DNA of 64,000 nucleotides, from the NCBI GenBank assembly GCA_965243025.1, contig CBDETY010000003.1:6144001-6208000 (forward strand), given 5' to 3'. Both the position numbers and the translations under genes were made by a program. This DNA comes from Candidatus Latescibacterota bacterium (lineage in GTDB: Bacteria; Latescibacterota; UBA2968; UBA8231). Within the stretch, counting starts at the first letter, position 1. The number at the start of each line of letters is the position of its first letter. The notes below the pieces were generated by a model. That model was given only the letters and a program-made list of their open reading frames with translations. It searched no databases and was not told where the DNA came from. This document shows positions 28,396 to 58,001 of the stretch, piece by piece.

Positions 28396-29358
28396 ATGAC
28401 GAAGCGAATTACCGCAGTCCTCGCGGCAGGAGTGCTTGTGATCTCCGCCGGAGCCCTCTTCGCCCAGGAAGTTCCGGAGCGTATCAGGGACATCCCCCGA
28501 TTCGAGGTCCAGCCCGTTCTCGACGGGGACCGGTTCAGCCACACCGACGAGTGGACCGGAGCCTATCACTACGAGTGCTCCATCAGCCAGATTCTGCGAG
28601 AAGGAGCCGAGTACGGGTGGCGTGACGTGGAACTGCAGCGAGGAGAGATCAGCGCCAATCAGCTCAACCAGAGCGAGGGTGAGGACGGTGCCGAGGCCCT
28701 GACCGATGCCGACGTTTCCGGGAACATCTGGCACGGGTGGGACGAGGAAGCCTTTTTCTACATTGCAGAAGTAAGGGACAACGTCCGCGACGTGGTGGGC
28801 GGCGGCGGAAACCCGGTCGCATGGTGGGAGCGCGACAGCATCTCTCTCTACCTCGACGTCCTGAACGAGAAGACCGGCGGCGACATCACCGGAGAGTATA
28901 TCAACCTCAACATCGTCAACTTCGTGGCCGCGCCGATGAACTCGAGCGAGGTCACCCGGACGCTCGAGAACACGGTCCAGGGAGGCCGGGAGCAGACGCA
29001 GGATCCCGACCTGATGGAAGGCCTCGAATACGGCTGGCAGGACCGCGGCGACGAGTACGGCGGCGAAGCGGACTACTCGCTCGAGGGCAAGATCTCCTGG
29101 TCGACCCTGGTGCGGGCGGGAAACCTGCCCCAGGCCCCGAGCGTGGGCTCCGAGATGGGCTTTTCCTGGATCATCCTCGATCCGGACGGCGACGAGGCCT
29201 ACGGAGGCCAGATCCTCTGTGAAGGCTGGGCCTCCGAAGCCGCCAACTACGCGACGATGATCTTCACCGACAATCGCGTAGGCCCCGCGGAAGGAACCGT
29301 TACTGCAGTCGAATCCGATTCCTGGGCGCGAATCAAGGCCAGCTTCGATCGTCAGTAG
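28396..29358 (+). CDS. Secreted CBM9/DOMON-like sugar-binding protein with C-terminal TAVExxSWxxIK tail
   Basis: GAGGAG RBS; signal peptide ending ALFA-Q; PVLDG..EW, WDEEAFF..EVRD, DSISLYLD, YSLEGKISW, GFSW..DPD. Confidence 0.8.
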   Translation: MTKRITAVLAAGVLVISAGALFAQEVPERIRDIPRFEVQPVLDGDRFSHTDEWTGAYHYECSISQILREGAEYGWRDVELQRGEISANQLNQSEGEDGAEALTDADVSGNIWHGWDEEAFFYIAEVRDNVRDVVGGGGNPVAWWERDSISLYLDVLNEKTGGDITGEYINLNIVNFVAAPMNSSEVTRTLENTVQGGREQTQDPDLMEGLEYGWQDRGDEYGGEADYSLEGKISWSTLVRAGNLPQAPSVGSEMGFSWIILDPDGDEAYGGQILCEGWASEAANYATMIFTDNRVGPAEGTVTAVESDSWARIKASFDRQ

Positions 29359-29394
29359 CAGACAGTTCCTTCAGTCCGGATTCGTCCGGTTTTC

Positions 29395-29429
29395 AGGGCC
29401 TTCCCCTCGCGCGGGGGAAGGCCCTTTTT
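29395..29429 (+). terminator. Strong intrinsic terminator
   Basis: AGGGCCTTCCCC-TCGCGCG-GGGGAAGGCCCT followed by TTTT. Confidence 0.9.
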
Positions 29430-29490
29430 CTTGCTTTTATCTCCCCGGGGAGCTGACTGGCCGCTGGATTCCACGAGCCCGAATTTCCGG

Positions 29491-29519
29491 TTGACTGGCT
29501 ATCCCCGGCGGGTTACTTT
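29491..29519 (+). promoter_or_regulatory. Putative sigma70 promoter of the large operon
   Basis: TTGACT-N17-TACTTT about 180 nt before ATG 29700. Confidence 0.55.
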
Positions 29520-29699: not shown

Positions 29700-32648
29700 A
29701 TGCCACCTGTGCCCGCACTTTCCCGTCTGCTCTGGATTCCGATATGCGTGCCCGGCGCCCTCCTTTTTTTCCAGGCTGATTCCGCGTCCGCCCAGCGCCA
29801 CCCCGAATCGCAGGGGGCCCTGTCTTACTACCGGGACGATCCGACGGTGCTCGTCGAACCCGCGTGGAAGCGGCGCCCGGCTTTTCTCCGCGGTCCCCTG
29901 GACCGGATGGAGCGAGGTCGCTCGCGGCGCTGGCTGGGAACCGAAGATGCTGTTTCCTACCTCAATTACGCCCAGGAGAAATACATCCTCTACCACCGCG
30001 AGTTGACCCCGTGGGCAATCCAGGGAGGCCGGCCCTTCAAGACCCGCAACGTGCACTGGGACCGCGTCGGCAACTACATGGGTTCCGGGTACCAACGGGT
30101 GTTCTCGATCGAGGAATCCCGTTCCAATACCACCGACGTCGGGTTCAGCTACGTCGACCACAAGTTCCACACGATGCGCATCGGCCACTACTCCTACAAG
30201 GATCTTCACTGGACGATGACCGTCGGTGGAGTAGGGGCTCAGAAGGTTCGCACCATCTTTACGCCGCTGACTCTCACCCAGACGCAGATGAGCGTCGCCC
30301 GCCTCGACCTCGACTATCTCGGCCGGGACCGGGCGACGGTTCTGTATTCCCGGGGGGGCCGCGTCGGCACCAACGTGCTGTTCTCCCAGTGGGCTCTGGC
30401 ATCCGGTGACGACTCCTTCGACGAGGCCCCGGTCATGGTCTACGGAGGCCACTGGCAGCGCGACGTCGGCGACTACATGACATTCGGCACCAGTTTCGTA
30501 AACCAGATTCTCAACGATGCCAGTTCCGCCCGCAGCGACGCCTGGCGGGGTGATCTCGGCTATGATATGCTGGGCCCGAGATCGATCTTCGTCCATATAG
30601 CCGACGACTCGCCGCTCGAAACCCGCGCCAACGCCAGGACGTACGGCGTCGACATCTTCATTACCGGGGAACGGGACGGCGAACCGGTCAAGCTGAGTTC
30701 CCAGAGCGATGCTTCGGGTTTCGAGTTCGACAGCCGTCTCGCCGCGACTGTCAGCGGCGGCCGTACGATCACGGGAGGAGGCCGCGAGGCGGTCGTTTAC
30801 GACGATGTGATTTACGAGTTCACCATCCCGGAAGACATTTCGGTCGTATCCGCCAGGTTTGTCGCCGATGTCGCCGACGATTACAAGATCGGGATCCGGC
30901 AGATTCACGATTATCCCGGGGTAGACAGGGATGGCAACCTCAGTCTGTCCGAATCGGAATGGCCGGTGAGCTTCGATGTTCTTCAGGCGGCCTCGCGAAG
31001 ACCTTTCAAGTGGGCGAAGGAAGAGGAGGAAAACCTCTACTACACCGTCGTGCGCTCCTCGGGAAAGGCGAGCGCCGGCGGCAATCGCAAACTCGTTTCC
31101 TTCGACTACGGAATGCCCACCGGTCAGAACCTCGCATCCTTCAACTTCGCGGCAGACCTGGTGGGACTCGAGATCCAGGGGGAGGTGGCGCGCAACCTGC
31201 AGAACTTCATCTACCCGGTCGGGACCAACCTGGGTTCCCGCCACAAGGATGCCGCCCTGGCCTACTGGTTCAAGGGCTTGAAGGACTTGCCTTCCGGTCT
31301 GTCTCTCGGGGGTGAGCTGTTCCGCATGGAACCGGACTACGCCGGCGGTTACGACAGTTGGCGAGGGGGCATGGCGTTTCATCTCGACCAGCAGTCCGGC
31401 AGGCGGGTCAACTCTTTCACGCAGGAGTATCCGCTGCTCGAAGACAACGACGACAACGATCAGTGGCCGGACGAACACGCCAGCGAAAACCCGACGCCGG
31501 GAGATCTCTATCCCGGGTGGCCCAACTCGAGCGTCTACCCCGGCCTGGACCTGAACTCCGACAACATACCCGATCCGGACCGCAACGAGAACTTTATCCC
31601 CGACTGGGAAGAAGCCTTCCTCACCTACGTCTCGGAGCCTCCTGACTTCGTCTACGGCATCGACCTGAACAACAACGCCGTGCCCGATTTCCGCGAGAAC
31701 GACGACCTGCCCGACTTTCCGTATCCGAAGGACCAGAAAGGCTACCACTTGTTCCTGGGGTTCGAGAGACTCGGGGCCTTCGGGAAGAACCTGTCGATAG
31801 GGCGCTACGACACCAGGCAGGTAGCCGGCGGCGGTGAGTCGAAGGCGGTTTACCTGAGGTATTCCCACGATTACGAAAACCCGGGAATCTTCTCCCTGAG
31901 GGTAAACTACGACGTCAAGCAGGTTCAGGACGACATCCTCGACCACACCTTCGTCTGGATCGTGCCGCCTGACGACGTCAATATCGTCGCCTGGATCAAC
32001 CAGCCGGACGGGCCGCCATGGAGCGAGGGACTATTCCGGCCTGCGACTCCCGACAGCTTGTTCATGCGGGACAGTTCGGTTCACACCGGGTTCATCGATA
32101 CCCGTTTCGGAGGTATTGGAGGGCTGAACTTCGACAACGCCCTGCTCTGGATTCGCAACAGTCAAGCCGAGATTCCCGGTTTCGAAGAAGGGGATCCCCT
32201 TGTGCAGCCTGAGGACGTGCGCTCCAAGATCGCCTTGGTCAACAAGGCCGATTACACCCGGCGCCTCGGCAGTTGGGAACTGATCGGCAAGTTCAAGCAC
32301 CGCTTGCGGCATGAGAGCCTCGAAACGGAAGAAGGTGCGCGCGTGAACCAGTCGGAATTCATCCCGATCGCGACGGCGGAGTATTCGCTCACCGCAGGCA
32401 CGCAGTTTCTGTTCGGTGCTCAAGGTATTCCATTTGTCCCTTACAAGATGTGGAATCGCGCCGACGAGAACGGGTCGTTTACGCAGACCGACTACCTCGC
32501 GATGGTAAAAATAACCGCCGAATACTTCGGAATCAGCGGCAACAACCTTTTCATGGGATACCAGCGAACCAATCGCAAATTCGACAAGTTCAGCGACCGC
32601 GATTTCAAATCCACCACCCTTTTCGTCGAACTCGTCTCTCCATTCTAG
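29700..32648 (+). CDS. Large predicted outer-membrane beta-barrel protein with Asp-rich Ca-binding-like insert (paralog A)
   Basis: Signal peptide ending ASA-Q; amphipathic beta segments; ends LFVELVSPF; DNDDNDQWPDE...PGLDLNSDNIPDPDRN block shared with 36738-39650. Confidence 0.75.
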   Translation: MPPVPALSRLLWIPICVPGALLFFQADSASAQRHPESQGALSYYRDDPTVLVEPAWKRRPAFLRGPLDRMERGRSRRWLGTEDAVSYLNYAQEKYILYHRELTPWAIQGGRPFKTRNVHWDRVGNYMGSGYQRVFSIEESRSNTTDVGFSYVDHKFHTMRIGHYSYKDLHWTMTVGGVGAQKVRTIFTPLTLTQTQMSVARLDLDYLGRDRATVLYSRGGRVGTNVLFSQWALASGDDSFDEAPVMVYGGHWQRDVGDYMTFGTSFVNQILNDASSARSDAWRGDLGYDMLGPRSIFVHIADDSPLETRANARTYGVDIFITGERDGEPVKLSSQSDASGFEFDSRLAATVSGGRTITGGGREAVVYDDVIYEFTIPEDISVVSARFVADVADDYKIGIRQIHDYPGVDRDGNLSLSESEWPVSFDVLQAASRRPFKWAKEEEENLYYTVVRSSGKASAGGNRKLVSFDYGMPTGQNLASFNFAADLVGLEIQGEVARNLQNFIYPVGTNLGSRHKDAALAYWFKGLKDLPSGLSLGGELFRMEPDYAGGYDSWRGGMAFHLDQQSGRRVNSFTQEYPLLEDNDDNDQWPDEHASENPTPGDLYPGWPNSSVYPGLDLNSDNIPDPDRNENFIPDWEEAFLTYVSEPPDFVYGIDLNNNAVPDFRENDDLPDFPYPKDQKGYHLFLGFERLGAFGKNLSIGRYDTRQVAGGGESKAVYLRYSHDYENPGIFSLRVNYDVKQVQDDILDHTFVWIVPPDDVNIVAWINQPDGPPWSEGLFRPATPDSLFMRDSSVHTGFIDTRFGGIGGLNFDNALLWIRNSQAEIPGFEEGDPLVQPEDVRSKIALVNKADYTRRLGSWELIGKFKHRLRHESLETEEGARVNQSEFIPIATAEYSLTAGTQFLFGAQGIPFVPYKMWNRADENGSFTQTDYLAMVKITAEYFGISGNNLFMGYQRTNRKFDKFSDRDFKSTTLFVELVSPF

Positions 32649-36737: not shown

Positions 36738-39650
36738 ATGATATTTTCGAGATCACACCTGGGCCTGCCGGCGATCATCGCGCTGCTTGCTGCGGCAATC
36801 ATCTCGTCCGACGCCGATGCCCAGACCCACCTGCGGAATCGGGCGTTCCTGAACCTTGGAGCCACGGAAGGTTACCTGAACTACGGCCGCAAGGAATACG
36901 ATCCCTATCCGGCGGTAATCAACGCCCGAAACCGGTACGACCGCCTCGGAAACTTTCTGTCCCGCGGTTACAAGGTGTTCACCTGGGAGTTCGAGCGTCC
37001 CGGCTTCAGCGAGATTACCACGCGAACCGCCCAGTACCTCGGGTGGTTCAACAACATGCTGATTCTCTCGGACTCGTACCGGGGCTGGGATTACCGGGTT
37101 ACCATGGGCGAGGACATTCGCACCAAGCTCACCGACCTCACCTACTCGAACCCGCGTTACTTCGGCATACAGTTCGACGGCGCCTCATCGGACAACAAGT
37201 TCACCCTGATGCTCAGCCAGGGCGACGACCTGCTGAATATCCCGAAGTTCTCTCATTTCTCGTCGACAAAGGAACAGTCGTCCGTCCTCGTCTTCGGAGC
37301 CCACTGGGAAACGAGGCTCGGCAGCATGCTTCGCCTCGGGACCACCTACTTCAACCAGCATATGGCGAACGTGACCGCCGCGGACGGTTCCTTCATCAAG
37401 GGCGACACTCCGTACAACATGCTCCCTCCGAACTTCATCGACGTAATTATCGAAGATGATTCACCGGACGAGCCCGGAATAACAGCAACGGTATACGACG
37501 TGAACATTGTAGTGCGGGGCTCTCGCCAGGGAGAGCCGATCGCGATGAGCTGCTGCGGACCCGAAGCGAATCCCGAAATCAGCCGTACGGTAAACGGCGG
37601 AATCACCGTGGCCGACGATGGTCTCCAGGTGGGCGGCCACGGCGACCGGGTCATCTACACATTCCAGCTTCCCGCCTATGATCTCGCCCCTCCGGACCAG
37701 TTCGCAGCAGACGCGGAGTCCGTGCTGCCCGGCCTGACGATCGAGTCAGTGCGGTTTTCAGCGGACGTCGCCGGAGACTACCGGATCTCGGTGCGGCAAA
37801 GGCATCTCTTCTTCGATGAAGGAGTGTACAACAAGAACATCGAGAAGGAGTACCTTCCCGGGAACGACAGGTACGTAAACCCTTACACCGGTTTGCAGGG
37901 GGAGGATGCGTCGAAGACGGTTCAGGAGCTGCTCGACGAGGGAGTGGACGTGTTCAGGAAGTGGCCTGTCGAACCCGACCCCACAATCGCAGCCGTGAAC
38001 CCTTTCATGCAGTACGCATGGGACCTGGAGGATCCCACCTCCATCTCCTACACCGTGCTGCGGTCGGATGGCAAAAACGACGGTGTCGACAATCGCAAAG
38101 TCGTGTCCTTCAACTACGGTATTCCGACGGGACAGGGGTTGTACGGCGCAGACTTCGACCTCACCTTCAAGAATACCAAGATCAAGGGAGAGATCGTAAC
38201 CAACCCGCAGTACTTCATCTTTCCTGTCGGCGTCAACGGCGGCAAAAGGGACGCCAAACGGCGCTGGGCCTATTTCATCAATGCCCAGCGAAAGCTCGGC
38301 TCCGTCGAGTTGGGCGGTGAGTTTTTCCGATTGGATCCCGACTACAGCGGCAACTACGACAGCCGTCGGGGCGGCATCCCCTTCTTCACGGACAAGTGCA
38401 TCACCTGTCCCCAGATGCAGGAGATGAACGTCATGACCGACAACGACGACAACGACCAGTGGCCGGACGAGTTCAACAACGAAAAGCCGAGCGCCGAGAA
38501 GTCCGACTCGGGTGTGTTCCCCGGCCTGGACGAAAACCAGGATCTGGTCCCGGACAGCGACCAGAACTTCAACGGCATCCCCGACTGGACCGAGCCGATC
38601 CTGTTCTACGACGCGGACCCGCCCGAATTCGTCTACGGCATTGACTTCAACAACAACGGGTATGTCGATTTCCGGGAGAATGACGCCTATCCGGACTATC
38701 CGTACCGCCGCGACCGCCGCGGTTGGCACGCGGTGGCGACCAAGGACGGCCTCGGACGCTGGGGCAAGTGGATATCCCTGGGATACTACAGCATGGAGGA
38801 GGAAGCCGGAGGCGGCGAGGCGTCGGCGGTCTACGGCCGCTACCACCACCGTTTCATCTCTCCTTACTTCGGGCGGCTCGAGATCAACGACGACCTCAAG
38901 TTCGTCAAGGACGACATCCCGGACGACGTCTACATATGGGAGGATGTCGGTTTCAACGAGAGAGTTGCCAGCCCGTATCCCCACCTGACCGGGAAGAACA
39001 TCGAACTTCGCGATCTCAATACCCAGTTGCTGCCGCCGGACAAGGATCCGCTGGCGATGCGCAACAGTATGGTCAACACCCTGTTCATCGAATCCGAACT
39101 CAAGGTCGTGTCGGCGCTGAACTTCGTGAACAACCTCCAGTGGGTGCGCAACAGCCAGAGAGAGGATGAATTCGGCGGCGGCCTTTTGCAGTCGGAGAGC
39201 CTCGAATCTACCATCACCATGGTCAACAAGGCCGACTACGACATTCCACTGGGGAATCTCAAAATCAAGCCGATGTTCAAGCATCTGCTGCTGTGGAAAA
39301 ATTCGCAGCGCCAGGAAGACCAGACCGGAGACGGCCGCCTGGCCTCGATCTCGAAGTGGTCGCCGATCATGCGCATCCGGTACGAGTTGACGAACAAGAC
39401 GAACCTGCAGCTCGGATTCCAGGGCTTTCCATTCTTCCGCTACCACGAAACCAACCGGGTCGACGATCTGCGAACTTTCAGGGAGTGGACGCTGGTCCTG
39501 ATGATGAGCAACCGCTCCGACCACTACGGCTACGCGATCTCGACCCAGTTCGGCCTGATAAAGACCGATCGCGTGTACGAAGAAGAGGTCAAACAGGGCG
39601 ACAACTTCAACTCGTCGAAGATGTTCTTCGATGTCGTGGCGGGGTTTTAG
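36738..39650 (+). CDS. Large predicted outer-membrane beta-barrel protein (paralog B)
   Basis: GAGGA RBS, signal peptide ending ADA-Q, ends MFFDVVAGF; collinear motif similarity to 29700-32648. Confidence 0.78.
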   Translation: MIFSRSHLGLPAIIALLAAAIISSDADAQTHLRNRAFLNLGATEGYLNYGRKEYDPYPAVINARNRYDRLGNFLSRGYKVFTWEFERPGFSEITTRTAQYLGWFNNMLILSDSYRGWDYRVTMGEDIRTKLTDLTYSNPRYFGIQFDGASSDNKFTLMLSQGDDLLNIPKFSHFSSTKEQSSVLVFGAHWETRLGSMLRLGTTYFNQHMANVTAADGSFIKGDTPYNMLPPNFIDVIIEDDSPDEPGITATVYDVNIVVRGSRQGEPIAMSCCGPEANPEISRTVNGGITVADDGLQVGGHGDRVIYTFQLPAYDLAPPDQFAADAESVLPGLTIESVRFSADVAGDYRISVRQRHLFFDEGVYNKNIEKEYLPGNDRYVNPYTGLQGEDASKTVQELLDEGVDVFRKWPVEPDPTIAAVNPFMQYAWDLEDPTSISYTVLRSDGKNDGVDNRKVVSFNYGIPTGQGLYGADFDLTFKNTKIKGEIVTNPQYFIFPVGVNGGKRDAKRRWAYFINAQRKLGSVELGGEFFRLDPDYSGNYDSRRGGIPFFTDKCITCPQMQEMNVMTDNDDNDQWPDEFNNEKPSAEKSDSGVFPGLDENQDLVPDSDQNFNGIPDWTEPILFYDADPPEFVYGIDFNNNGYVDFRENDAYPDYPYRRDRRGWHAVATKDGLGRWGKWISLGYYSMEEEAGGGEASAVYGRYHHRFISPYFGRLEINDDLKFVKDDIPDDVYIWEDVGFNERVASPYPHLTGKNIELRDLNTQLLPPDKDPLAMRNSMVNTLFIESELKVVSALNFVNNLQWVRNSQREDEFGGGLLQSESLESTITMVNKADYDIPLGNLKIKPMFKHLLLWKNSQRQEDQTGDGRLASISKWSPIMRIRYELTNKTNLQLGFQGFPFFRYHETNRVDDLRTFREWTLVLMMSNRSDHYGYAISTQFGLIKTDRVYEEEVKQGDNFNSSKMFFDVVAGF

Positions 39651-39714
39651 TCCGGAAGGACACTTGGCGCAGGAAACGAACGGAAGGAAATCTAAAGGGT
39701 AAAGGCAGCCGGAC

Positions 39715-42981: not shown

Positions 42982-43041
42982 CCAACTGGGAAGTCGGCAG
43001 ATAACGACAGGCGCAAGCCTGCTACTAAGCGGAGGGATCCA

Positions 43042-43713
43042 ATGTCGCAGAATTTCTTAGTCGATTCGTTTGTCAAAGGCGGCCCGATGATGTGGCCGCT
43101 GTTGCTGTGCTCGCTCATTGCCCTGGGCGTGATCATCGACAGGTTTCTCAATCTCTTCAGAGTTCCGAGTGAAGAAGAGGCGGAGGCGGAGCTCAACGCC
43201 GCCGAGCAGGTGGTGCAAAGTGAGGGGGAACAGGCCGCTGTGGAGCATTTCAGACAGGGGAGCGGGGTTCTCAATTACGTGTTCGCAGCCGTGCTGAAGC
43301 GCTTCGACACTTTGATTCTCGAGAACCGCACCGATGTCGAGGACATGCGGCAGGAGCTGATTCTGGTGACCGAAGAGGCTGGCGTCGACTACCTTGGCCG
43401 TCTTTTGAACGCCCTGGCCACGATCGGGGTACTCGCACCCCTGATGGGACTTCTGGGTACGATCACGGGAATGATCCGGGCTTTCGACGCGATCGCGCGC
43501 GCCGGGGCCGGAGATCCGGCCGCGGTGGCCAGCGGCATTTCCGAAGCCCTGATCACCACGGCGTCCGGATTGATCGTCGCCATCCCCACCATTGTCTTTC
43601 ACCGCTTCCTTTCATCCCGCGCCGACAAGGTGTTCAAACAGGTCGAGCTTTATTGCCACGCTTTCGCCAATACCCTTCTGGTACGGCACACGTCCCAATC
43701 CAGACAGGCATGA
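43042..43713 (+). CDS. exbB: MotA/TolQ/ExbB proton channel protein
   Basis: GGPMMWPL, APLMGLLGTITGMI.AF, GISEALITTASGL.VAIP; GGAGG RBS. Confidence 0.93.
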   Translation: MSQNFLVDSFVKGGPMMWPLLLCSLIALGVIIDRFLNLFRVPSEEEAEAELNAAEQVVQSEGEQAAVEHFRQGSGVLNYVFAAVLKRFDTLILENRTDVEDMRQELILVTEEAGVDYLGRLLNALATIGVLAPLMGLLGTITGMIRAFDAIARAGAGDPAAVASGISEALITTASGLIVAIPTIVFHRFLSSRADKVFKQVELYCHAFANTLLVRHTSQSRQA

Positions 43714-43740
43714 ATCCGGGAGTCATGAGGAGGCTGCAGA

Positions 43741-44160
43741 ATGGCGAAAAAACGCCTCAGTCATAAGGAATCCCGCTTTGCAGGGGAGACGAATCCCGAC
43801 TTGACCCCCCTGATCAACTGCATGTTCCTGCTGCTGGTCTTTTTCATGGTGGCGACCACCTTCGTAAACCCCAAGGGCCTGAGCGTCGATCTGCCTGGCG
43901 GCCAGGGAGAAGAATCCCGGGCAACCAAGGACATGAACATCGTCATCGAGCAGGACGGAACGCTGACGGTCAATGGCCAATCGACGGCGAAAAACGAACT
44001 GGCGGCACGCATCAAGGAGATCATGGCGGTAGAGAACACCAAGAATGTCATCCTCGAGGCGGCTCGCTCCACAAGCCACGGTGATGTCGTCAAGGTTGTC
44101 GATATCGCCCGCGGGCAGGGGATCGAAGCGGTGGCTTTTGCCAAGGCTTCAGAAGGCTAA
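43741..44160 (+). CDS. exbD: ExbD/TolR family protein with Asn at the conserved TM Asp
   Basis: LTPLINCMFLLLVFFMVATTF, VDLP, HGDVVKVVD.AR..G. Confidence 0.9.
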   Translation: MAKKRLSHKESRFAGETNPDLTPLINCMFLLLVFFMVATTFVNPKGLSVDLPGGQGEESRATKDMNIVIEQDGTLTVNGQSTAKNELAARIKEIMAVENTKNVILEAARSTSHGDVVKVVDIARGQGIEAVAFAKASEG

Positions 44161-44181
44161 AGAAACGGAGGGGTTTACCGC

Positions 44182-44610
44182 ATGGCTGGTAGACGGTCCC
44201 TGGCGGAAGAGGCCGGAAAGGTCGAACTCAATCTCACGTCCCTGATAGATGCGGTGTTCCTGCTGCTGATTTTCTTCATGGTGACGACGGTATTCGTCAA
44301 GTCGACAGCCTTGAGAATCGAGTTGCCCGACGCGGTCAACTACGACCAGATCGAACAGGAGAAGAAACTGAATCTGCGCATCTCCTCGGAAGGAAAGCTG
44401 GAGATGAACAGCAGGCTCGTCGGCATGGGAGAGCTCGGCACGTGGATTCGACAGGAGAAGTTTCGCACCGGCTCGACAACCCTCATCATAACCGCCGACG
44501 ACAAGACTCCTCATGGGTACGTCATCGACGCAATGGAAGCTGCCGTTGGTGCCGGTGTCGAGAAAATCGATCTTGAAACAGAGGAACCCGGAAAGAGCAA
44601 GGCCGGGTAA
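44182..44610 (+). CDS. exbD: ExbD/TolR family protein
   Basis: NLTSLIDAVFLLLIFFMVTT, IELP, ITADDKTPHGYVI.AM.AA..AG. Confidence 0.92.
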   Translation: MAGRRSLAEEAGKVELNLTSLIDAVFLLLIFFMVTTVFVKSTALRIELPDAVNYDQIEQEKKLNLRISSEGKLEMNSRLVGMGELGTWIRQEKFRTGSTTLIITADDKTPHGYVIDAMEAAVGAGVEKIDLETEEPGKSKAG

Positions 44611-44643
44611 TTCGAACCAGAAACCAGGCAGGCTGCAAGGACC

Positions 44644-45414: not shown

Positions 45415-45492
45415 ACTCGAACATCCCTGAGTTTACCCATCGGCAAGCCAACCACCTTCAGGAGCTGGAACGGGATTCCAGCTCCTGATTCT

Positions 45493-47175: not shown

Positions 47176-47191
47176 CGACCGGAACAAGGCG

Positions 47192-49174: not shown

Positions 49175-49175
49175 G

Positions 49176-50135
49176 GTGGCAACGTTGCCTGGGCCTACAG
49201 ACGACACGCGGACAGCGATCACAATCCCCCTCGCCCACGTGCTGCTGGCGCTTTGTCTTTGCGAGTGGTCGTGCAGCGACGGCGGTTCGACCCCTGCCGG
49301 CCCGGCTGTTTCCGGGGACCCCCCTTCCTCGACGGGGCCGCCGTCGAACGGTTCCGCCCTCTCGGCAGCAGGGAGTGCCCCGGAAACTTCCGCCGCGAAC
49401 CCCGCACCGCAGGAGATCGCAGCCGGGGCCACCCTTTTCGTCTCCCCTGACAGCAGCGCGGCGCACCAGATGGTCCTGGTTTCAGAGGGTCCGTTCCAGA
49501 TGGGCTCCGAGACGGGGTACCCTGCCGAGTCCCCGGTTCACGTGGTGACCCTCGGAGCGTTTTTCATCGATGTCTATGAAGTGACAGTGGCTCAGTACCG
49601 GGCCTGTTTGGAAGCCGGTTTCTGCAGCGAGCCGGCGGACGCGGACCGCTGTGAGTGGACCGAGGGCGGTCCCGACAATCACCCGATCAACTGCGTGTAC
49701 TGGCAGCAGGCATTCGATTACTGCAGCTGGGCGGGGCTGCGCCTGCCGACCGAGGCGGAATGGGAAAAGGCAGCGCGCGGCACGGACGGTCGTACCTATC
49801 CCTGGGGGGAGGAGGAGATCGACCGGGACCGCGCCAACTACAAGGGGACAAACACCGCCAAGCCTGTAGGCAGCTATTCGGAAGGAGTCTCTCCCTACGG
49901 GGCCTACGACATGTCGGGCAATGTCTGGGAGTGGGTCGGGGATTGGTGGGACGAGAACTACTACTCGACCAGCCCCGCCGACAACCCGACGGGTCCCGAC
50001 AGCGGTGAGTTCAAGGTTCTGCGCAGCGGCTCCTGGTGTTTTCTGGAATTCTCGCAGCGTTCCACCCGCAGGGAACCGTACGATCCGCAAGTTACCGACA
50101 TGGACATCGGTTTTCGCTGCGCCCGCGACATATGA
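49176..50135 (+). CDS. Formylglycine-generating enzyme (SUMF1/FGE-sulfatase) domain exported protein
   Basis: FQMGS, YEVT..QY, HPIN.V.W..A..YC.W.G.RLPTEAEWEKAARG, DMSGNVWEW, IGFRCA; P/S/A-rich linker. Confidence 0.9.
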   Translation: MATLPGPTDDTRTAITIPLAHVLLALCLCEWSCSDGGSTPAGPAVSGDPPSSTGPPSNGSALSAAGSAPETSAANPAPQEIAAGATLFVSPDSSAAHQMVLVSEGPFQMGSETGYPAESPVHVVTLGAFFIDVYEVTVAQYRACLEAGFCSEPADADRCEWTEGGPDNHPINCVYWQQAFDYCSWAGLRLPTEAEWEKAARGTDGRTYPWGEEEIDRDRANYKGTNTAKPVGSYSEGVSPYGAYDMSGNVWEWVGDWWDENYYSTSPADNPTGPDSGEFKVLRSGSWCFLEFSQRSTRREPYDPQVTDMDIGFRCARDI

Positions 50136-50180
50136 GCGGGGCGATCCTGTCTCCCGGGTACTCACCTTCACCGTAATCCC

Positions 50181-53100: not shown

Positions 53101-54800
53101 TTACCGCCCAGGCGTTCACCTCGGTGCAACCCTACCTGAAGTTTTACCGGATTCCCAGGGACACGGCCCCCGCGTACCAGGGGGCCCTGCTCCGGGACCC
53201 CGGCTGGAAGGGGCTGCAGCTTACGGTGCTCGACTACGCCGCCAGCGCCTTCGCGGACAACGCCAGGGTCCAACCGCGCAGCTGGCTCATCTCCAAGAAC
53301 ATCGGCGAACGCGCCTATATCGACATTCACCGGGACAAGCCATCGCAGGGAAAGACTTCCCGCCGCTCCAGCTTCGCGCACGCCCTGCTCGGACTGACCG
53401 CGGGTGAAACGGACGTCCTGGGGATCGACAGGCACCTGGTCGGAGAGCGGAGCCGCTGGTTCCGGGAGGGAGACTACGACGTCTGCATCCTGCCGCAGGC
53501 GATTGCGGGAATCCTCGGCATCGACGAGGAGGAGATCGGCGAAGCGACCGTGGAGCTGATGGGGGAGCCCCACCGCGTAATCGCCACCTTCGACGGCGAT
53601 GCAGTCGATCGCCTGCGCGATCTCGACGGCGAGAGCCTGATGCCGGTGGACACGGTCGCCGAGGCCAAGAAGATGGAGCAGATGGAGGATCTCGATCCGC
53701 GCCTGCGCGACAGCGCCGCCATCGAGAGCTTCGCCCACCTCGCAGCAGACAACGTAATCCTGCTGCCCTACCGGAAGGTCATCGACCTCGGAGGAACGTT
53801 GCGCTCGCTGGCTCTCGTCGGTTTTTCCGGAGACGAGGCCATGGTCGACCGGGTGGAGGAGTTCGTAACCCGGGTTGCGGTTCCGGTCTTCGTCGGCGAT
53901 GCCGACAAGGTGCGTGTGTACACCTCCATGGGATCGGCCGCCATCTCCGGACTGGGCAACCTCTTCGTGCCGCTTCTGATTGCCGCGCTCATCGTCCTCA
54001 ACACCATGATGGGTGCAGTTTACGAGCGCGACCGGGAGATCGGGGTGTACAGCTCGGTCGGCCTGGCGCCGAGCCACATCTCCGCCCTGTTCGTCGCCGA
54101 GGCGGTGGTCTTCGCCGCGGTGGGGGCGGTTCTCGGCTACCTCCTCGGGCAGTCGGTAACGCTGCTGATGGCGCGCCTGGAGTTCCTCGGCGGCATGTTC
54201 CTCAACTATTCCTCGCTTTCGGCGATCTCGTCGACAGCCATCGTCATGGCGACCGTGATCCTGTCGACCCTGTACCCGGCCCGCAAGGCGGCGGACATGT
54301 CGGTTCCCGACGTGACACGGCGCTGGAAGTTCCCCGAGCCGGAGGGGGACGACTGGCATTTCGATTTCCCGTTCACCATCGGCAACACCGACGCCCTCGG
54401 TATCAGCGCCTACCTGCACCGGGTGTTCTCATCCTACGGAGAGGGTTCGATAGGGGACTTCATGACCGAGGAAGTCGAGCTGACCACCGGCGCGGACCCC
54501 TCGGGTGAAGCGATCTACGTCTTGAGCATGATGGCCTGGCTGGCCCCCTACGATCTGGGAGTCAGCCAGCAGGTAACCCTGCGGTCGCTGCCCAGCGCCG
54601 AGCTCGCCGGTGTGTACCGCATAGAAATAGAACTGCACAGGGTGAGCGGCGACGTCGCCTCGTGGAAGCGGTTGAACACCGGGTTCCTCAATGTATTGCG
54701 CAAGCGGTTCCTGGTCTGGCGCACGATCAGTGGAGAGTTGCGCGAGGAGTATCTCGAAGAGGGCCGCGCGCTGGCGGGGGGACCGGCTGAAACCGCCTGA
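50181..54800 (+). CDS. 1539-aa fusion: PA + degenerate M28 peptidase domain, TM bundle, MacB/FtsX ABC-permease domain
   Basis: SRVTGYPG, GPLVYGGKG (PA), AYYD..PG.APGAEN (M28-like), NLRKRPLRT.LT, LNTMMGAVYER.REIGVYSSVGLAP.HI..LF.AEA (FtsX). Confidence 0.85.
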   Translation: MAKFASFFCLTTAVAMIGVLAFGDPDRINRRVNELFGWQPQMPADVRLVPLEEASSIRELAGTVSASWVEGELRRFSGFGSRVTGYPGEARAFEYLERRFRELGLRDIRSEGFQVTVPVDRGGRLEIGGRTLAVHALWPNGVRTTTLPGEGVSGPLVYGGKGGLEDLDGLPIEGSIVLLDFDCGQSYLNAASLGAQAVLFFDNGLVNREQAADKFLKVPVDLPRFWVERPQAELLLAELEAGPAPARLSGRMDWEAVEARNLYGWIPGTDALLPENTREHPQAWKEQVLVIQAYYDAASVVPGIAPGAENAAGIVALLKLAEMLRQRPPNYTVLILATSGHFQGLAGINDFLYRHSRRSEYFRERMPESERIDFDLMLSLDLSSHGRRTISFGMGTFYAPKWKTDNYVKFMLTPYSARLTLAVEEIFGDTTRHVEGISPQKRTWKNFMPVRLAFDSESAAFVGQKSLALAAANDARRRVDTPADLPEYVDAGNLTRQIETLGGMVLWATRDSGLLKPTKLELEDYGHSLAGSIYWFDREVNFAVPKKPVPNALVTYQQLGPNSVAGVRTLMIERADEEGRFQFDIMRNRLDNTIKAYEIGPNGEILSAPDMGQEGDETYPMEHPWGWWENEMLQVVFKCRALSLFETVDSQYLSVLDHLTVLNDRNGEPQSWGADFVEDQSTEEGKVTLAAAVYAEPGNRVKALMSTSLFGVRYLLSGAPDEWVERPVNPEEVDEKVVARAYGAGYAVDDGVVLRPGYAAAKDMWVLDDVRIKQLARYGVRNQKFMRLHEEARQSLLAAREHLAAREYSAFKAATRRAWGLEARGYPDVKSTADDTVYGVIFYFALLLPFSFFCERLLFSLPDVRKQLLCASGFFLGIFLVMRYIHPAFKLSSSPYIIFLAFVIFAIGGTALFMVLGRFSQSVKERKRAVSGMHEADIGRLSATAAAINLGISNLRKRPLRTALTVATLTLLTFTAQAFTSVQPYLKFYRIPRDTAPAYQGALLRDPGWKGLQLTVLDYAASAFADNARVQPRSWLISKNIGERAYIDIHRDKPSQGKTSRRSSFAHALLGLTAGETDVLGIDRHLVGERSRWFREGDYDVCILPQAIAGILGIDEEEIGEATVELMGEPHRVIATFDGDAVDRLRDLDGESLMPVDTVAEAKKMEQMEDLDPRLRDSAAIESFAHLAADNVILLPYRKVIDLGGTLRSLALVGFSGDEAMVDRVEEFVTRVAVPVFVGDADKVRVYTSMGSAAISGLGNLFVPLLIAALIVLNTMMGAVYERDREIGVYSSVGLAPSHISALFVAEAVVFAAVGAVLGYLLGQSVTLLMARLEFLGGMFLNYSSLSAISSTAIVMATVILSTLYPARKAADMSVPDVTRRWKFPEPEGDDWHFDFPFTIGNTDALGISAYLHRVFSSYGEGSIGDFMTEEVELTTGADPSGEAIYVLSMMAWLAPYDLGVSQQVTLRSLPSAELAGVYRIEIELHRVSGDVASWKRLNTGFLNVLRKRFLVWRTISGELREEYLEEGRALAGGPAETA

Positions 54801-54817
54801 TCCGGAAAGGGCCGCAG

Positions 54818-56719
54818 ATGAGTGTTGAAATCCGCTTCGAGGACCTCGACGGAGACGGGGACCGCGAAGTAGTCGTGGAGAATCCCTGGCTGCGCGCGGT
54901 CCTGCGTTTCCCCGGGCAGGTAGGGGAAGAGTACTACGGCAGGCGCTTCACATGGGGCGGACGCATGCAGTCCCTGGTCTACAAACCGACCCGGCGCGAG
55001 CATTTCATGACCGAGATGCTCGATCCGGAAGATGTGCGCCCCTTCGGGCTGCCGGACGAGCTGTTCGCCTCGTTCCCGTTGGCACCCGGTCCGAACGGAG
55101 AACCGGGGGAGCTCAAAATGGGGGTGGGGGTAACCAGGACCTCGGCCGGGGTTCCCCGGCTCGAGCCCCTGCCCTGGACCTGGCGCGAAGAGAAGGTTGG
55201 CGCCGAGACCGTTGTCGTCTTCCGCCAGGAAGAAGAGGTCGAGCAGTATTCGTACGTCTACGAAAAGCGCTACCGCTTCCGCCCGGACGCTGCCTGGTTC
55301 GCCATGGATGTCGTGTGGGAGAATCGCGGCGAAACCGCGCTGGCGTCCGACTGGGACATCCACTCCTTCCACGTCTCCGGGGCGCCTCCGAACTCCTCCT
55401 GGATGGTTGCTCCCAAGCGCGCCTGGGTATCCTGTGGCAACACCCGCCTGCGCACGGTTCTGAAGGAGGCGAGCCCGATCTTCAGCACTCCGGATGAAAA
55501 CCAGATGGTCGCCGACCTCATCGACTGGAGCCTCGACAGGGAACCGTGGTGGTACGCGCTCGGCCCGGGGGACGGCGACGAGTTCTACCTGTTGCGCGCC
55601 CGTTTCGAGCCCTGCCGCGGGCTCTGGTGGACGGCCTGGGAGGCCTTCACCCCGCAGGGTATCAACCACGTCGAGGTTCCCGCGGGAGACCGCGCGGTGT
55701 GGGGATTCGACGTCACCCTGGGCAGGGGTGGCCGCAACTTCGTGTGCGCCGGCGAGGACTGCGGCCTGACCCTGGACCGACGGGGAAGGGGCGTGTCGGC
55801 AGCCCTGCACGCCGCCGGGGAGCGTTCCGGCAGGCTGGAAGTAACCGTGGTCGACCGGAAAGGGAGGCCGCATGCAAATGCCGCCGCGGAAGGGGGAGCC
55901 CGGCCCCAGGCAGCGCTGAAGGTCGATGCCCCGCTGCCGGAAAAGGGAGAGTATGCGACCGTCGAGGCCGTCTACCGGGAAGGCGAACGCACCCTGCTGC
56001 ACGCGAGCGAGCTGGTAGCCCTGGAGGAGCGGCGGCCCACGGCTCATCTGCCGGCCGACACAGCCGGACTCCGCGTCCTCATCGGCAGCCACCACGATGC
56101 CGGGCTGCCCCACACGGACGGACTGTTCCTCTACAGCCACGCTCTCGAGAGCGGGTGCACGGCGACGTGGGAGAAGGCGGGGGAGCTGAGCGCCGACCCT
56201 GCAGGATACGAGGTCATCTGCCTGGTGGGGGATGCGTGGCCGCCGGGACAGGCAACAATGCTGCGCGAGTGGGTAAACGGCGGCGGCGGCCTGCTGGTGT
56301 GCGCCCCGTTCGGCCACCTGTCGCATGAGCTCGACGATCTGCTTCCGCTGCAGCCGCTGGGCCCGGGGAGTCTGCAGGCGGCCGAGCCCCCGCTGGGGCT
56401 CGAGGCCGGGGCCCGCCACTGGACGAGCGACCGCCTGATGCTGCATCCCGACGGCGAGGCCCGGGTGGGGTTCTGGACACCGGCACGGCCAGCCGGCCAG
56501 GCTGTTGTTTCCCTCTGCTTCGACGACCCCGGCCGCCACCCGGCCGTGGCTGTCGCGGAACGGGGGCGCGGCCGGGTGGCCGGGTGCGCCAGCCGGCCCG
56601 CATGGGGGACCCCGGCCCGCAGCGCCATCTGGTCGGGGTGGGGGCAATATCACCGGTCGCTGTTCGCCGGACTGATCGCCTGGCTGGGGCGGCGCGACCG
56701 CGGAAACGGAACCGGCTGA
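54818..56719 (+). CDS. Hypothetical protein: beta-supersandwich-like N-terminus and class I glutamine amidotransferase-like C-terminus
   Basis: DLDGDGD.EVVVEN..LR; C-terminal YEVICL..LREWVNGGGGLL..LDDLLPL...GRGRV. Confidence 0.65.
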   Translation: MSVEIRFEDLDGDGDREVVVENPWLRAVLRFPGQVGEEYYGRRFTWGGRMQSLVYKPTRREHFMTEMLDPEDVRPFGLPDELFASFPLAPGPNGEPGELKMGVGVTRTSAGVPRLEPLPWTWREEKVGAETVVVFRQEEEVEQYSYVYEKRYRFRPDAAWFAMDVVWENRGETALASDWDIHSFHVSGAPPNSSWMVAPKRAWVSCGNTRLRTVLKEASPIFSTPDENQMVADLIDWSLDREPWWYALGPGDGDEFYLLRARFEPCRGLWWTAWEAFTPQGINHVEVPAGDRAVWGFDVTLGRGGRNFVCAGEDCGLTLDRRGRGVSAALHAAGERSGRLEVTVVDRKGRPHANAAAEGGARPQAALKVDAPLPEKGEYATVEAVYREGERTLLHASELVALEERRPTAHLPADTAGLRVLIGSHHDAGLPHTDGLFLYSHALESGCTATWEKAGELSADPAGYEVICLVGDAWPPGQATMLREWVNGGGGLLVCAPFGHLSHELDDLLPLQPLGPGSLQAAEPPLGLEAGARHWTSDRLMLHPDGEARVGFWTPARPAGQAVVSLCFDDPGRHPAVAVAERGRGRVAGCASRPAWGTPARSAIWSGWGQYHRSLFAGLIAWLGRRDRGNGTG

Positions 56720-56822
56720 GGATTCCCCGGGTGGACCGGGCAAAACTGTCTTTGTCCGGCGGGGGTTATGGAGTAAATTCACTCAGGCATTCGAAGCGGA
56801 CGAACCGAAAGGTCACAACGCC

Positions 56823-58001
56823 ATGAGCCCGTCATCCCGGTTTTCCTCTCCGGTCTCGGGGTTCGATCCCAGTGAACTCCTGGGCCGGCTTCGCAAGCTC
56901 TTCCTGGCCTGTCTCCTCCTTGCCGCCCTGCTGCACCTGGGCCTGGTGGCAGTCGATCCGTTCAAGGAGCAGGCCGCCAAAGCGCCCAAGCCGCTGACTA
57001 CCAAGTTCATCAAGCGCGAGCCGCGGCTGACCAAGCCGCTGGAGCTGCGCAAGATTCCCCAGCCGAAGCGAAAGATGGTGAAGCGCGAGGTGAAACTCGC
57101 CGCCGCCCGCATGGACCAGGTAGAGGCGACCGCTGCTTTCAACACCGGGGCCGTGATCGGCCAGGTGGCCAACCCGAGGGTGGCGCTGTCGCGGGCGTCT
57201 ACTTTCTCGACCGCGAACCTGGAGCCGCGGACGATCGTTCCCGAGATGCTGGCCGGCAGCCGGGCCCCGGAGAACAAGATCGACATGGCGCTGGAAATGA
57301 TGGACGTCAAAAGCATGGACACAGGCCGCTACCGGGCGATGGTGGTGCAGGATCCCAAGGACCGCCAGAACGTGACCGGATTCGTGCGCTTCGCCCATGT
57401 CCAGTCAGCGCGTTCCATCGAGTTCGGCCGCGGGGGAATCAGCAGCTTCTTCATCGATGAAGTTCGGGACGCCCTGAACGAGTACACCGGCATCGAGGCC
57501 AAGTACGAGGGGTACATCACCTACGACGACAGCCGGCTGATGGAGATCCCCATCATCTTCAGCGCGGGGGGCGCCAACGAAAGCGAGCTGGAGATGATAT
57601 GCCGCTACATGCAGGCCGGGGGGTTCGTGTTCGGCGGCGCCAACTTCAAGTCGCTGGAGAAGTACGGCGGGATGGTGTCGGGCCGGGACTTCTGGGCCGA
57701 GCGGCTACAGGACGACCATCCCGTCTTCAGCGCTTTCTTCGACATCCGCGGGGGCGCTCCTTCATCCTACCAGGGGGGCCAGCTCGCCAGCGGCAAGCAG
57801 GGGGTGAACCCCTGGAACAGGACGACAGGGTATTTCGTCAAGGGCCGCCTATCCGGGATCAGCTTTTCCTGGGGTACCGGGCTCGGCAACCGGCGCGAGA
57901 AGGAGGCCGGGCGCAACCGCCAGCTCGTCGTCAACGTGATCATCTACGCCCTGACCCAGGAAGGTTCGATGACCCAGCGGTTGATGCAGATGGTCAATTA
58001 G
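56823..58001 (+). CDS. Membrane-anchored DUF4159-like protein (paralog B)
   Basis: Shares KAPKPLTTKFIKREPRLTKPLELRK, ENxIDMALEM, YALTQEG.MTQRLMQMVN with 25708-26895. Confidence 0.8.
   Translation: MSPSSRFSSPVSGFDPSELLGRLRKLFLACLLLAALLHLGLVAVDPFKEQAAKAPKPLTTKFIKREPRLTKPLELRKIPQPKRKMVKREVKLAAARMDQVEATAAFNTGAVIGQVANPRVALSRASTFSTANLEPRTIVPEMLAGSRAPENKIDMALEMMDVKSMDTGRYRAMVVQDPKDRQNVTGFVRFAHVQSARSIEFGRGGISSFFIDEVRDALNEYTGIEAKYEGYITYDDSRLMEIPIIFSAGGANESELEMICRYMQAGGFVFGGANFKSLEKYGGMVSGRDFWAERLQDDHPVFSAFFDIRGGAPSSYQGGQLASGKQGVNPWNRTTGYFVKGRLSGISFSWGTGLGNRREKEAGRNRQLVVNVIIYALTQEGSMTQRLMQMVN

Follow-up and report, generated by a model that had tools for sequence, protein, structure and literature searches.

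A conserved, modular envelope locus of the Ton/Tol kind with an unnamed family of predicted outer-membrane barrels in Candidatus Latescibacterota

In the window analyzed here, a stretch of 64,000 nucleotides from the genome of a Candidatus Latescibacterota bacterium (GenBank assembly GCA_965243025.1, contig CBDETY010000003.1, positions 6,144,001 to 6,208,000), positions 28396-58001 hold a locus of 18 co-oriented open reading frames (ORFs) on the + strand, here called g01 to g18 (Table 1). The locus is a real, strongly conserved and modular envelope system of the Ton/Tol kind, which has been partly anticipated in print, as far as the accessible text of the relevant paper goes (PMC12204202). It encodes two large barrels (barA and barB), two lipoproteins (lipoA and lipoB), a giant tetratricopeptide repeat (TPR) protein, an ExbB-ExbD-ExbD motor, a peptidyl-prolyl isomerase (PPIase), predicted secreted proteins and inner-membrane proteins. 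Our preferred reading, held tentatively and with less than even confidence, is a Ton-like uptake of oligomers through a new barrel family, driven by the proton-motive force (PMF). An initial annotation, made from the sequence without database searches, had described about 30 kb of co-oriented and mostly tightly spaced genes, and this holds: intergenic gaps range from -4 to 103 bp, with one exception of 341 bp 3' of g01, and the G+C content is 57-67%. All locus products were scanned with Pfam and NCBIfam models and their bit scores compared with the curated cut-offs, and Pfam confirmed the TPR protein, the ExbB-ExbD-ExbD order and the SurA/PrsA-like foldase that had been recognized by eye.

According to their sequences and an AlphaFold2 (AF2) model, the two large proteins are outer-membrane barrels of an unnamed family without a Plug match. 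They are indeed paralogs that both end in Phe (34% identity, E 7e-156), and the C-terminal residue is aromatic in 36 of 41 sequences of the family. Neither protein matched Plug or TonB_dep_Rec in Pfam at E<=0.01; barA had zero matches in Pfam and NCBIfam, barB had a weak SlpA_C match (20.9 bits), and a search of the PDB sequences with the barrel profile returned 0 matches. Against 1.84 billion representatives the profile found 859 matches at E<=1e-3, of which 289 reach E<=1e-30, and the homologues are without Pfam domains and annotated only as "hypothetical." The AF2 model of barA, based on a 41-row alignment (predicted local distance difference test [pLDDT] 74.6, predicted template modeling score [pTM] 0.72), has about 30 strands and no visible globular plug, and its N-terminal 118 residues are conserved yet disordered. 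Thus, neither Pfam nor the model points to the ordinary plugged TonB-dependent receptors that had been considered as an alternative identity. The structure matches of barA (MtrB, SlpA/SDBC, LptD, ushers, SusC-like proteins and TonB-dependent receptors) have TM-scores of 0.13-0.25; those found by Foldseek are generic large barrels (E 4.5e-8 to 1e-4), and the best long barrel match by VIA is 7zgx_A (Z 12.3 over 400 residues). Since these matches are only generic, no specific family can be named for the barrels. Among the Foldseek and VIA matches listed, none that contains a plug lay over the barA N terminus, and VIA scarcely covered residues 1-252. A relationship to SprA was rejected, as the alignment of the barrel profile with the SprA of this genome by hhalign had a probability of 0.7%.

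A further trait of the family is an Asp-rich segment at residues 582-672 of barA (about 31443-31715), which is modeled with a pLDDT below 50 and has an equivalent in barB. It includes two DxNxNxxxDxxE loops (residues 627-638 and 655-666) that are invariant or nearly so in 41/41 sequences and are kept even in paralogs at 23-29% identity; further Asp/Asn clusters are invariant too. We take these loops to be putative EF-hand-like calcium sites.

About 17 envelope genes form a conserved unit. The barrel profile recovered 123 relatives, kept as 75 loci, from metagenome-assembled genomes (MAGs) labeled Latescibacterota, Gemmatimonadota/-etes and Handelsmanbacteria, with one Planctomycetota; a barA ortholog at >=45% identity occurs in 29 of the loci, some pairs of which come from one MAG. 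Wherever it could be tested in these 29 loci, the barA ortholog was accompanied by lipoA (next to it in 25/25), g04 (24/24), a protein of the g05 type, with a tail resembling the C-terminal domain (CTD) of type IX secretion system (T9SS) substrates (23/23), the PorV-like barrel g06 (19/19) and barB (17/17), and nearly always by the CBM9 gene g01 (25 of 27) and the divergent upstream DUF4159 ortholog (18 of 20). The TPR giant follows directly 3' of barB in 17/17 loci, which gives the conserved order CBM9-barA-lipoA-g04-discoidin/CTD-PorV-like-barB-TPR. This order is kept across genomes whose proteins are just 45-60% identical, and, as it recurs in related genomes, the arrangement lies far beyond chance. 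In five genomes extended downstream, TPR, ExbB (77-82% identical), ExbD1, ExbD2, lipoB, the PPIase and the OPT-like protein g14 (orthologs 72-77% identical) follow one another in 5/5, with ExbB directly 3' of TPR, and g16 is present in 4/5 (68-71% identical) and the FGE gene g15 in 3/5; g17 and g18 were not seen there. One more locus (L041) agrees with this downstream order. Consequently, the gene order conservation anticipated by the initial annotation is borne out. Of 121 genomes sampled from the phylum, 71 contain the barrel family. These include all 40 of the family to which the window belongs; in two other families of the same class the barrels were found in 0/29 and 0/13 genomes.

The initial annotation had envisaged a single machine, and in this respect it has to be revised, since the locus exemplifies an envelope system that is modular and specific to the lineage. 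A tblastn search of the 18 products against their own 6.8-Mb genome (96% complete) revealed about 40 barrel paralogs in about 22 loci, together with 8 paralogs of lipoB. Four further "full" loci (79 kb, 146 kb, 3.50 Mb and 6.09 Mb) carry subsets of a DUF4159 protein, a CTD protein, one to three barrels, the TPR giant, ExbB/ExbD, lipoB, the M28/FtsX protein and the OPT-like protein, and about 16 "mini" loci combine a CTD protein, one to three barrels and a PPIase, in some cases with a lipoprotein as well. In other genomes, the paralogous loci contain the same parts in shuffled order. By Pfam, the recurrent neighbors of barrel loci are DUF6785/DUF6784 permeases, FG-GAP/ASPIC proteins and Spermine_synth-TPR proteins, and sister loci carry glycan-active folds (Pectate_lyase22/PD40, Beta_helix and BNR). 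Genes for OPT-like or DUF6785/DUF6784 proteins belong to or adjoin the window locus, the 6.09 Mb locus, a mini-locus, a singleton ExbB locus and a canonical TPR-ExbB-ExbD-ExbD-TonB cluster. The latter (C3:5016000-5034000, L091) comprises M28/FtsX, OPT-like, DUF6785/DUF6784, TPR (405 amino acids [aa]), ExbB, ExbD, ExbD and TonB_C genes, adjoins genes for NrdR and ribonucleotide reductase, and holds the only strong TonB_C gene of the genome (C3:5020256). Its gene order makes the right half of the window locus look like a paralog of it without TonB. A fourth ExbB locus (6.01 Mb) was considered as a Tol-Pal cluster and ruled out; in the whole genome, no TolB exceeded the curated cut-off and only PD40-repeat matches were obtained.

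The likeness to the canonical cluster also bears on a different account, which we regard as unlikely, namely that separate units became syntenic in one lineage: a CBM9 gene, a barrel/lipoprotein operon, a general Ton/Tol motor with its TPR protein, and a permease/FtsX operon, with the motor serving the 29 plug-bearing receptors of the genome or the integrity of the envelope. Because the 5.02 Mb cluster likewise runs TPR-ExbB-ExbD-ExbD, there followed by a real TonB_C, and has DUF6785, OPT-like and M28/FtsX genes beside it, the motor and permease block of the window could be a duplicated Ton unit, and one ExbB paralog may have a Tol-like role, given that no TolB over the cut-off was found. Furthermore, consensus scans predicted two terminator-like hairpins on the + strand with 13-bp stems and T-rich tails, 3' of g01 and 3' of lipoB, and a near-consensus promoter-like site upstream of g01, and the scan of 47000-58600 gave no terminator- or promoter-like element of comparable strength. 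On these predictions, g01 is probably its own transcription unit, and the hairpins may divide the locus into three units (g01, barA to lipoB, and PPIase to DUF4159) or serve as attenuators. ExbBD is also missing from 2 of 8 orthologous loci. Set against independent units, however, are the renewed association of barrels, TPR giant, lipoB and DUF4159 in three further loci of the same genome, the reappearance of the same parts, shuffled, in many paralogous loci of other genomes, the retention of gene order at the protein identities given above, and the confinement of the TPR giant to such loci in all 4 full-length copies.

The motor itself looks functional, as judged from ExbB and both ExbD proteins being strong members of their Pfam families. 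The best NCBIfam match of ExbB is TolQ (97 bits against a cut-off of 221), with the exbB equivalog also below its cut-off, and the two ExbD proteins match TolR at 64 and 58.7 bits (cut-off 127). In ExbD/TolR proteins a transmembrane (TM) Asp binds protons and is essential. ExbD1 and ExbD2, which are 33% identical, differ at this position: ExbD1 has Asn, within the motif LINC, in 7/7 orthologs, and the ExbD2 orthologs keep Asp (LIDA or MIDA); in paralogous loci, L060 and L062 among them, Asp is found in both ExbD proteins. The TPR giant g08 is built of CpoB/BamD-type units (tol_pal_ybgF 259 bits in 8 stretches, BamD 175 bits), matches PorW/SprE partially (96 bits against a cut-off of 250), and has three paralogs in the genome, every one of them in a full locus.

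The statement that the locus lacks TonB is accurate insofar as no product matches TonB_C, and it needs qualification because the DUF4159 proteins encoded within and next to the locus resemble TonB in the layout of their N termini, which makes them candidate non-TonB transducers. In g18, a short cytoplasmic tail precedes a TM helix, a K/R/P-rich linker of ~120 residues and an alpha/beta domain; AF2 places a helix at residues 16-43, disorder at 44-165 (linker pLDDT below 50) and the alpha/beta domain at 170-392. In structure, this domain matches 4i66 best (E 8e-9) and GATase1/ThuA folds next, with no vWA entry among the matches listed. The divergent upstream protein is predicted to have the same layout, with a TM His, a K/R/P-rich linker and a GATase1/ThuA-like C-terminal domain. 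The His in the TM helix is found in 19 of 24 aligned DUF4159 proteins and in all 10 readable paralogs of the genome, which holds 15 DUF4159 matches over the cut-off; a SxxxH motif occurs only in divergent DUF4159 subfamilies, including paralogs that adjoin ExbB/ExbD. A complex prediction for a TonB-box-like contact between barA residues 30-135 and the DUF4159 C-terminal domain (residues 160-392) gave no answer (score 0.00) and counts neither way.

A precedent for such transducers exists in the work of Williams-Jones et al. (2025; PMC12204202), whose accessible text describes modules of a gene for a TPR protein, a tolQ-like one and two heterologous tolR-like genes with a vWA force transducer, the latter composed of a TM helix with a SHLS/His motif, a disordered proline-rich linker and a vWA head. 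A role in gliding is raised there for a related vWA module. Consequently, the locus cannot be called undescribed in its motor, as a TPR-tolQ-tolR-tolR module without TonB is in print, although the barrels and DUF4159 do not appear in the accessible text, which contains none of the terms "DUF," "Latescibacter" and "Gemmatimonad" and names other lineages than that of the window. Likewise, a literature search mostly confined to material outside subscription journals and supplements found no description of the barrels or of DUF4159 as a transducer; the name DUF4159 turned up in one article, on the Pfam database.

By analogy with motors of this class, the locus might instead do mechanical work, in the manner of Agl-Glt/Nfs or Tol-Pal, which we consider very unlikely. 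It would then serve to move or to tether either the discoidin/CTD protein, as a surface adhesin, or the outer membrane itself, and not to transport solutes. The part list is alike in kind, with one ExbB/TolQ and two ExbD/TolR proteins whose best NCBIfam matches are TolQ and TolR, and, in addition to these, a CpoB-like TPR protein of very large size, barrels, lipoproteins and a surface protein; the resemblance to Myxococcus Agl-Glt is a presumed one. Motility or tethering is nevertheless hard to reconcile with about forty paralogs of the barrels and five or more full loci per genome, and according to Pfam the locus encodes neither a TonB_C-like equivalent of GltG/J nor an OmpA/Pal-type peptidoglycan binder, to which is added the lack of a TolB over the cut-off in the genome. 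The suggestion of gliding for the related vWA module (PMC12204202, accessible text) is the published point that favors a mechanical role.

Energized uptake, the reading we prefer, would assign a place to most products. The discoidin/CTD protein would be exported by an ordinary T9SS, and the PorV/PorQ-like barrel would retain it at the surface to capture substrate, perhaps with the assistance of the CBM9 protein. The barrels barA and barB would pass the substrate over the outer membrane, gated either by the lipoproteins or by their own N-terminal 100 residues, which are conserved and disordered; the gating would draw its energy from ExbB and a heteromeric axle of ExbD1(Asn) and ExbD2(Asp), the force would be transmitted by DUF4159 proteins through their TonB-mimicking layout, and the membrane-anchored TPR giant would act as a periplasmic scaffold. 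Finally, the OPT-like and DUF6785 permeases would carry the product over the inner membrane. The substrates may be peptides or glycopeptides, or oligosaccharides, from a host or algal matrix. The main arguments for uptake are the expansion of the barrels, which at ~40 copies in ~22 loci fits substrate-specific uptake, the constant company of permeases, the paralogy with a true Ton cluster, and the glycan-active folds in sister loci. Further support comes from the synteny, from the motor that looks functional, from the TM His and disordered linker of the DUF4159 proteins, from a weak hint of expression in an RNA library (see below), and from the vWA module as a precedent (PMC12204202, in its accessible text).

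Several observations weigh against uptake. Most barrel loci of the genome are without motor genes, and in two orthologous loci (L033 and L052) TPR is followed by lipoB without ExbBD, which accounts for the 2 of 8 mentioned above. The hairpins suggest three or more transcription units. As for the proposed transducers, g18 lies 12 kb from the motor genes in a position that is not conserved in the five genomes, and the TM His is missing in 5 of 24 DUF4159 sequences. Since the barrel model is plug-less, gating is pure inference. The M28-like domain of g16 (residues about 285-395), judged by eye, seems to be without the canonical metal-binding His/Asp and Glu-Glu pair and is probably not a peptidase, and in the window itself there is no substrate, enzyme or regulator that ties the locus to a nutrient. 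Moreover, a SurA-like chaperone accompanies nearly every barrel and the CTD protein is without exception upstream, which would fit export or assembly at least equally well.

The arrangement of a discoidin/FlgD-Ig protein beside a PorV-like barrel is as the initial annotation had it, and the domain names have to be taken loosely: in g05, F5_F8_type_C reaches 27.6 bits (cut-off 28.2), FlgD_ig 22.9 (cut-off 27) and Por_Secre_tail 13.5 (cut-off 23), the C-terminal part of the PorU model matches at 30.5 bits, and PorV_fam in g06 also remains below its cut-off. The g05 paralogs of other loci reach 35-53 bits for FlgD_ig, with CHU_C/Por_Secre_tail below cut-off, and the single paralog of g06, in the 3.50 Mb locus, scores 64.5 bits for PorV_fam. 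The g05-g06 pair resembles, by a presumed analogy, a cargo with its cognate PorP/SprF- or PorQ-like anchor.

In the locus products, searches with Pfam and NCBIfam gave no match to SprA, GldL, GldM, GldN, TonB_C or Plug, in agreement with the initial annotation, and PorU is also missing. The reported lack of GldK requires a comment, because g15, an FGE gene omitted from that annotation, matches the GldK model partially (85 bits against a cut-off of 350), which reflects the shared FGE-sulfatase fold only. What does not stand is the description of the system as self-contained: SprA (C3:6660469-6665319), two PorU over the cut-off (C3:6052108 and C3:3585492), a number of PorV-family proteins, about 48 additional matches at the CTD-like end of the PorU model, TonB_C, and 29 Plug domains are found elsewhere in the genome, so that the g05 tail can use an ordinary translocon. 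Of the genome-wide searches that had been proposed, those for sprA and tonB were thus positive. GldK had 11 matches, 0 over the cut-off, and GldL and GldM had none, the GldM model being also silent in 14 control genomes, so that its sensitivity is unverified. Across the window's own family, SprA exceeded the cut-off in 41/41 genomes and GldM in 0/41, with one weak match, the GldM model again being without a positive control. As the GldL and GldM searches lacked such a control, absence is not shown; going by these profile searches, the family may have a T9SS without the known motor.

On this basis, each barrel could be a dedicated anchor or pore for the CTD protein encoded just upstream, by analogy with PorP/SprF and type-B CTD cargo or with two-partner secretion; the PPIase would chaperone the cargo or the barrel, and ExbBD, TPR and DUF4159 would supply the energy and may replace the undetected GldLM. 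We judge this export or surface assembly to be rather unlikely, although it is the chief competitor of the uptake reading. It agrees with the position of a CTD-type protein 5' and a PPIase 3' of the barrels in most loci, with the PorV/PorQ-like barrel between the CTD protein and barB, with the T9SS components and CTD-like matches of the genome, with the contrast between SprA and GldM counts in the family, and with the partial matches of the TPR giant to PorW/SprE and of g15 to GldK. On the other hand, these last matches reflect generic TPR and FGE folds far under the cut-offs, the Gld searches have the limit just given, the barrels show no detectable SprA homology by hhalign, motor genes are present in few of the ~22 barrel loci, and the recurrent OPT-like and DUF6785 inner-membrane permeases are unexpected for an exporter. 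An idea that joins both functions, and that we hold to be highly improbable, is a third kind of PMF-coupled outer-membrane machine, in which an ExbB pentamer with a heteromeric ExbD axle, DUF4159 anchors and a TPR scaffold would act on plug-less, Ca2+-binding barrels of ~30 strands and would also replace the undetected GldLM to drive or complete type IX secretion and the attachment of CTD proteins.

For the remaining products, the picture is uneven. The two lipoproteins lipoA and lipoB are paralogs, as had been noticed (35% identity, E 5e-42, a lipobox Cys in both); lipoA has no match in Pfam or with a PDB profile, and the best PDB match of the lipoprotein family has an E of only 0.25. In the Atlas, lipoB falls among lineage-specific hypothetical lipoprotein clusters; the nearest named leads, DUF4352 and LssY_C (0.81), were rejected as too weak for use. 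The lipoprotein g04, single copy in the genome, has a lipobox Cys that is invariant in 16/16 sequences and matches no family of Pfam or NCBIfam. Its earlier designation as CsgG-like is not supported, given that CsgG appeared neither in Pfam (E<=1) nor in NCBIfam, and that a 16-sequence profile search of the PDB gave chance-level matches only. The PPIase g13 has 16 tblastn matches in the genome, many of which adjoin barrels. The OPT-like label of g14 is retained as an Atlas lead (0.98 to "peptide transporter" clusters, with OPT in 15-33% of members), there being no Pfam match. The M28/FtsX giant g16 is upheld by its FtsX and Peptidase_M28 scores, with PA just under its cut-off (23.9 bits); it has ~7 paralogous copies in the genome, four of which lie beside an OPT-like gene (window, 1.75, 2.77 and 5.03 Mb), a fifth (79 kb locus) ~20 kb from one, and three near ExbB/ExbD genes (window, 5.02 and 6.09 Mb). 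The single-copy g17 is doubtful as a member of the system.

Table 1. Features of the locus and its surroundings in the window
Feature	Coordinates	Strand	Support
DUF4159 protein, 395 aa, divergent upstream neighbor	25708..26895	-	Pfam DUF4159 35.3 bits; 67% identical to g18
Promoter-like site (predicted)	28240-28268		consensus scan
g01, CBM9-like secreted protein, 320 aa	28396..29358	+	CBM9_1 35.7 bits, cut-off 23.4; signal peptide
Terminator-like hairpin 3' of g01 (predicted)	29395-29425	+	consensus scan
g02 (barA), outer-membrane beta-barrel of an unnamed family (predicted), 982 aa	29700..32648	+	AF2 model
g03 (lipoA), lipoprotein, 249 aa	32665..33414	+	lipobox VAGC; lipoB paralog
g04, lipoprotein, family unnamed, 231 aa	33411..34106	+	lipobox Cys
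g05, secreted, discoidin-like N-terminal domain and T9SS-CTD-like (FlgD-Ig) tail, 552 aa	34103..35761	+	
g06, small barrel, distant PorV/PorQ-family relative, 299 aa	35771..36670	+	PorV_fam 32.4 bits, cut-off 90
g07 (barB), barrel (predicted), barA paralog, 970 aa (from Met at 36738)	36738..39650	+	
g08, TPR protein with N-terminal hydrophobic anchor, 1088 aa	39715..42981	+	
g09, ExbB/TolQ-type proton channel	43042..43713	+	MotA_ExbB PF01618 101.4 bits, cut-off 22.9
g10 (ExbD1), ExbD/TolR with TM Asn replacing Asp	43741..44160	+	ExbD PF02472 96.5 bits
g11 (ExbD2), ExbD/TolR with TM Asp	44182..44610	+	ExbD PF02472 93.5 bits
g12 (lipoB), lipoprotein, 256 aa	44644..45414	+	lipobox Cys; lipoA paralog
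Terminator-like hairpin 3' of lipoB (predicted)	45458-45488	+	consensus scan
g13, SurA/PpiD/PrsA-like parvulin PPIase, 560 aa	45493..47175	+	Rotamase_2 63.4 bits; NCBIfam PPIase matches
g14, polytopic inner-membrane protein, OPT-like lead, 660 aa	47192..49174	+	Atlas 0.98
g15, FGE-sulfatase-fold protein, 319 aa	49176..50135	+	FGE-sulfatase 196 bits
g16, PA/M28-like/FtsX-permease giant, 1539 aa	50181..54800	+	FtsX 53.7, M28 25.7, PA 22.3 bits
g17, weak DUF4350 match, 633 aa	54818..56719	+	DUF4350 21.2 bits, cut-off 30.4
g18, DUF4159 protein, TonB-like topology, 392 aa	56823..58001	+	DUF4159 33 bits
Five flanking genes	58011-60932, 60957-62990, 62924-64000, 23139-24743, 24850-25701	-	

The five flanking genes encode an MFS/spermidine-synthase/TPR fusion, two DUF6785/DUF6784 membrane proteins, an FG-GAP/ASPIC protein and a HEAT-repeat protein. 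The MFS/Spermine_synth-TPR, DUF6785/DUF6784 and FG-GAP/ASPIC families also adjoin other barrel loci of the genome (L086, L090, L091 and L093).

Sequencing runs labeled sponge, coral or marine metagenome contained 38-49% of the sampled words of 36738-46700. One coral metagenome run yielded 16 contigs, mostly 95-99% identical to the locus, and a coral metatranscriptome library (X20) yielded 26 short contigs, 90-99% identical, on g01, barA, g05, g06, barB, lipoB and other parts. The latter is a weak hint that a close relative transcribes the locus, since the library holds short contigs only and may include DNA carry-over; the uncovered parts are uninformative.

If the preferred reading is true, energized transport at the outer membrane is not confined to plugged TonB-dependent receptors and transducers with TonB_C, and the barrels would be a major class of outer-membrane proteins so far left without annotation, in a lineage that sponges, corals and sediments commonly harbor. 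The locus would also be a second example, beside the vWA family, of ExbBD/TolQR motors with non-TonB heads, and would add the obvious outer-membrane partners that are missing for the vWA family in the accessible account (PMC12204202). Additionally, with SprA, PorU and PorV in the genome and no detectable GldLM, what powers type IX secretion here becomes a testable question.

Compared with known systems, the locus shares with the Ton system clear ExbB and ExbD family members, one ExbD that keeps the protonatable TM Asp, a TPR gene before the motor, as is also seen in the genome's TonB cluster (5.02 Mb), and an outer-membrane barrel with inner-membrane permeases alongside. It departs from it in having neither TonB_C nor Plug, in the predicted ~30-strand barrels of an unrelated, unnamed family where the Ton system has a plugged 22-strand receptor, in a candidate transducer with a DUF4159 (GATase1/ThuA-like) head, and in the Asn of ExbD1 at the proton-binding position. 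From Tol-Pal it differs in that the TolQ and TolR equivalogs stay below their cut-offs, only the repeated TPR units of g08 match the CpoB model, and no TolB over the cut-off is found in the genome. With MtrB (6r2q), SlpA/SDBC (8ae1 and 7zgx), LptD and the FimD/PapC ushers, the modeled barrel has in common only the fold of a large transmembrane beta-barrel, with TM-scores of 0.13-0.25, identities of 6-11% and root-mean-square deviations of 8-30 A. Reminiscent of the T9SS is the CTD-like tail of g05 next to a PorV/PorQ-like barrel, both named from matches below the cut-offs, and SprA, PorU and PorV are encoded elsewhere in this genome; in contrast, no defining T9SS part reaches its cut-off in the locus, and the barrels show no detectable relation to SprA.

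The SusC/SusD polysaccharide utilization loci (PULs) differ in that no product here matches SusC (Plug/TonB_dep_Rec) or SusD in Pfam or NCBIfam, a T9SS-type tail stands in place of lipidation, and neither SurA-like PPIases nor TPR giants belong to PULs; like them, however, the barrel loci pair a barrel, a lipoprotein and a surface binding protein in many paralogous copies, some sister loci with lyase-like or beta-helix proteins. In comparison with the vWA module, to the extent of the accessible text of PMC12204202, the head here is DUF4159 and not vWA, and the window adds barrels, lipoproteins and CTD proteins, none of which that text describes. Both, nonetheless, combine a TPR protein, one TolQ-like and two unlike TolR-like proteins (g08-g09-g10-g11) with a putative transducer that has a TM helix with a His, a disordered linker (Pro/Lys-rich in the DUF4159 proteins) and a globular alpha/beta head.

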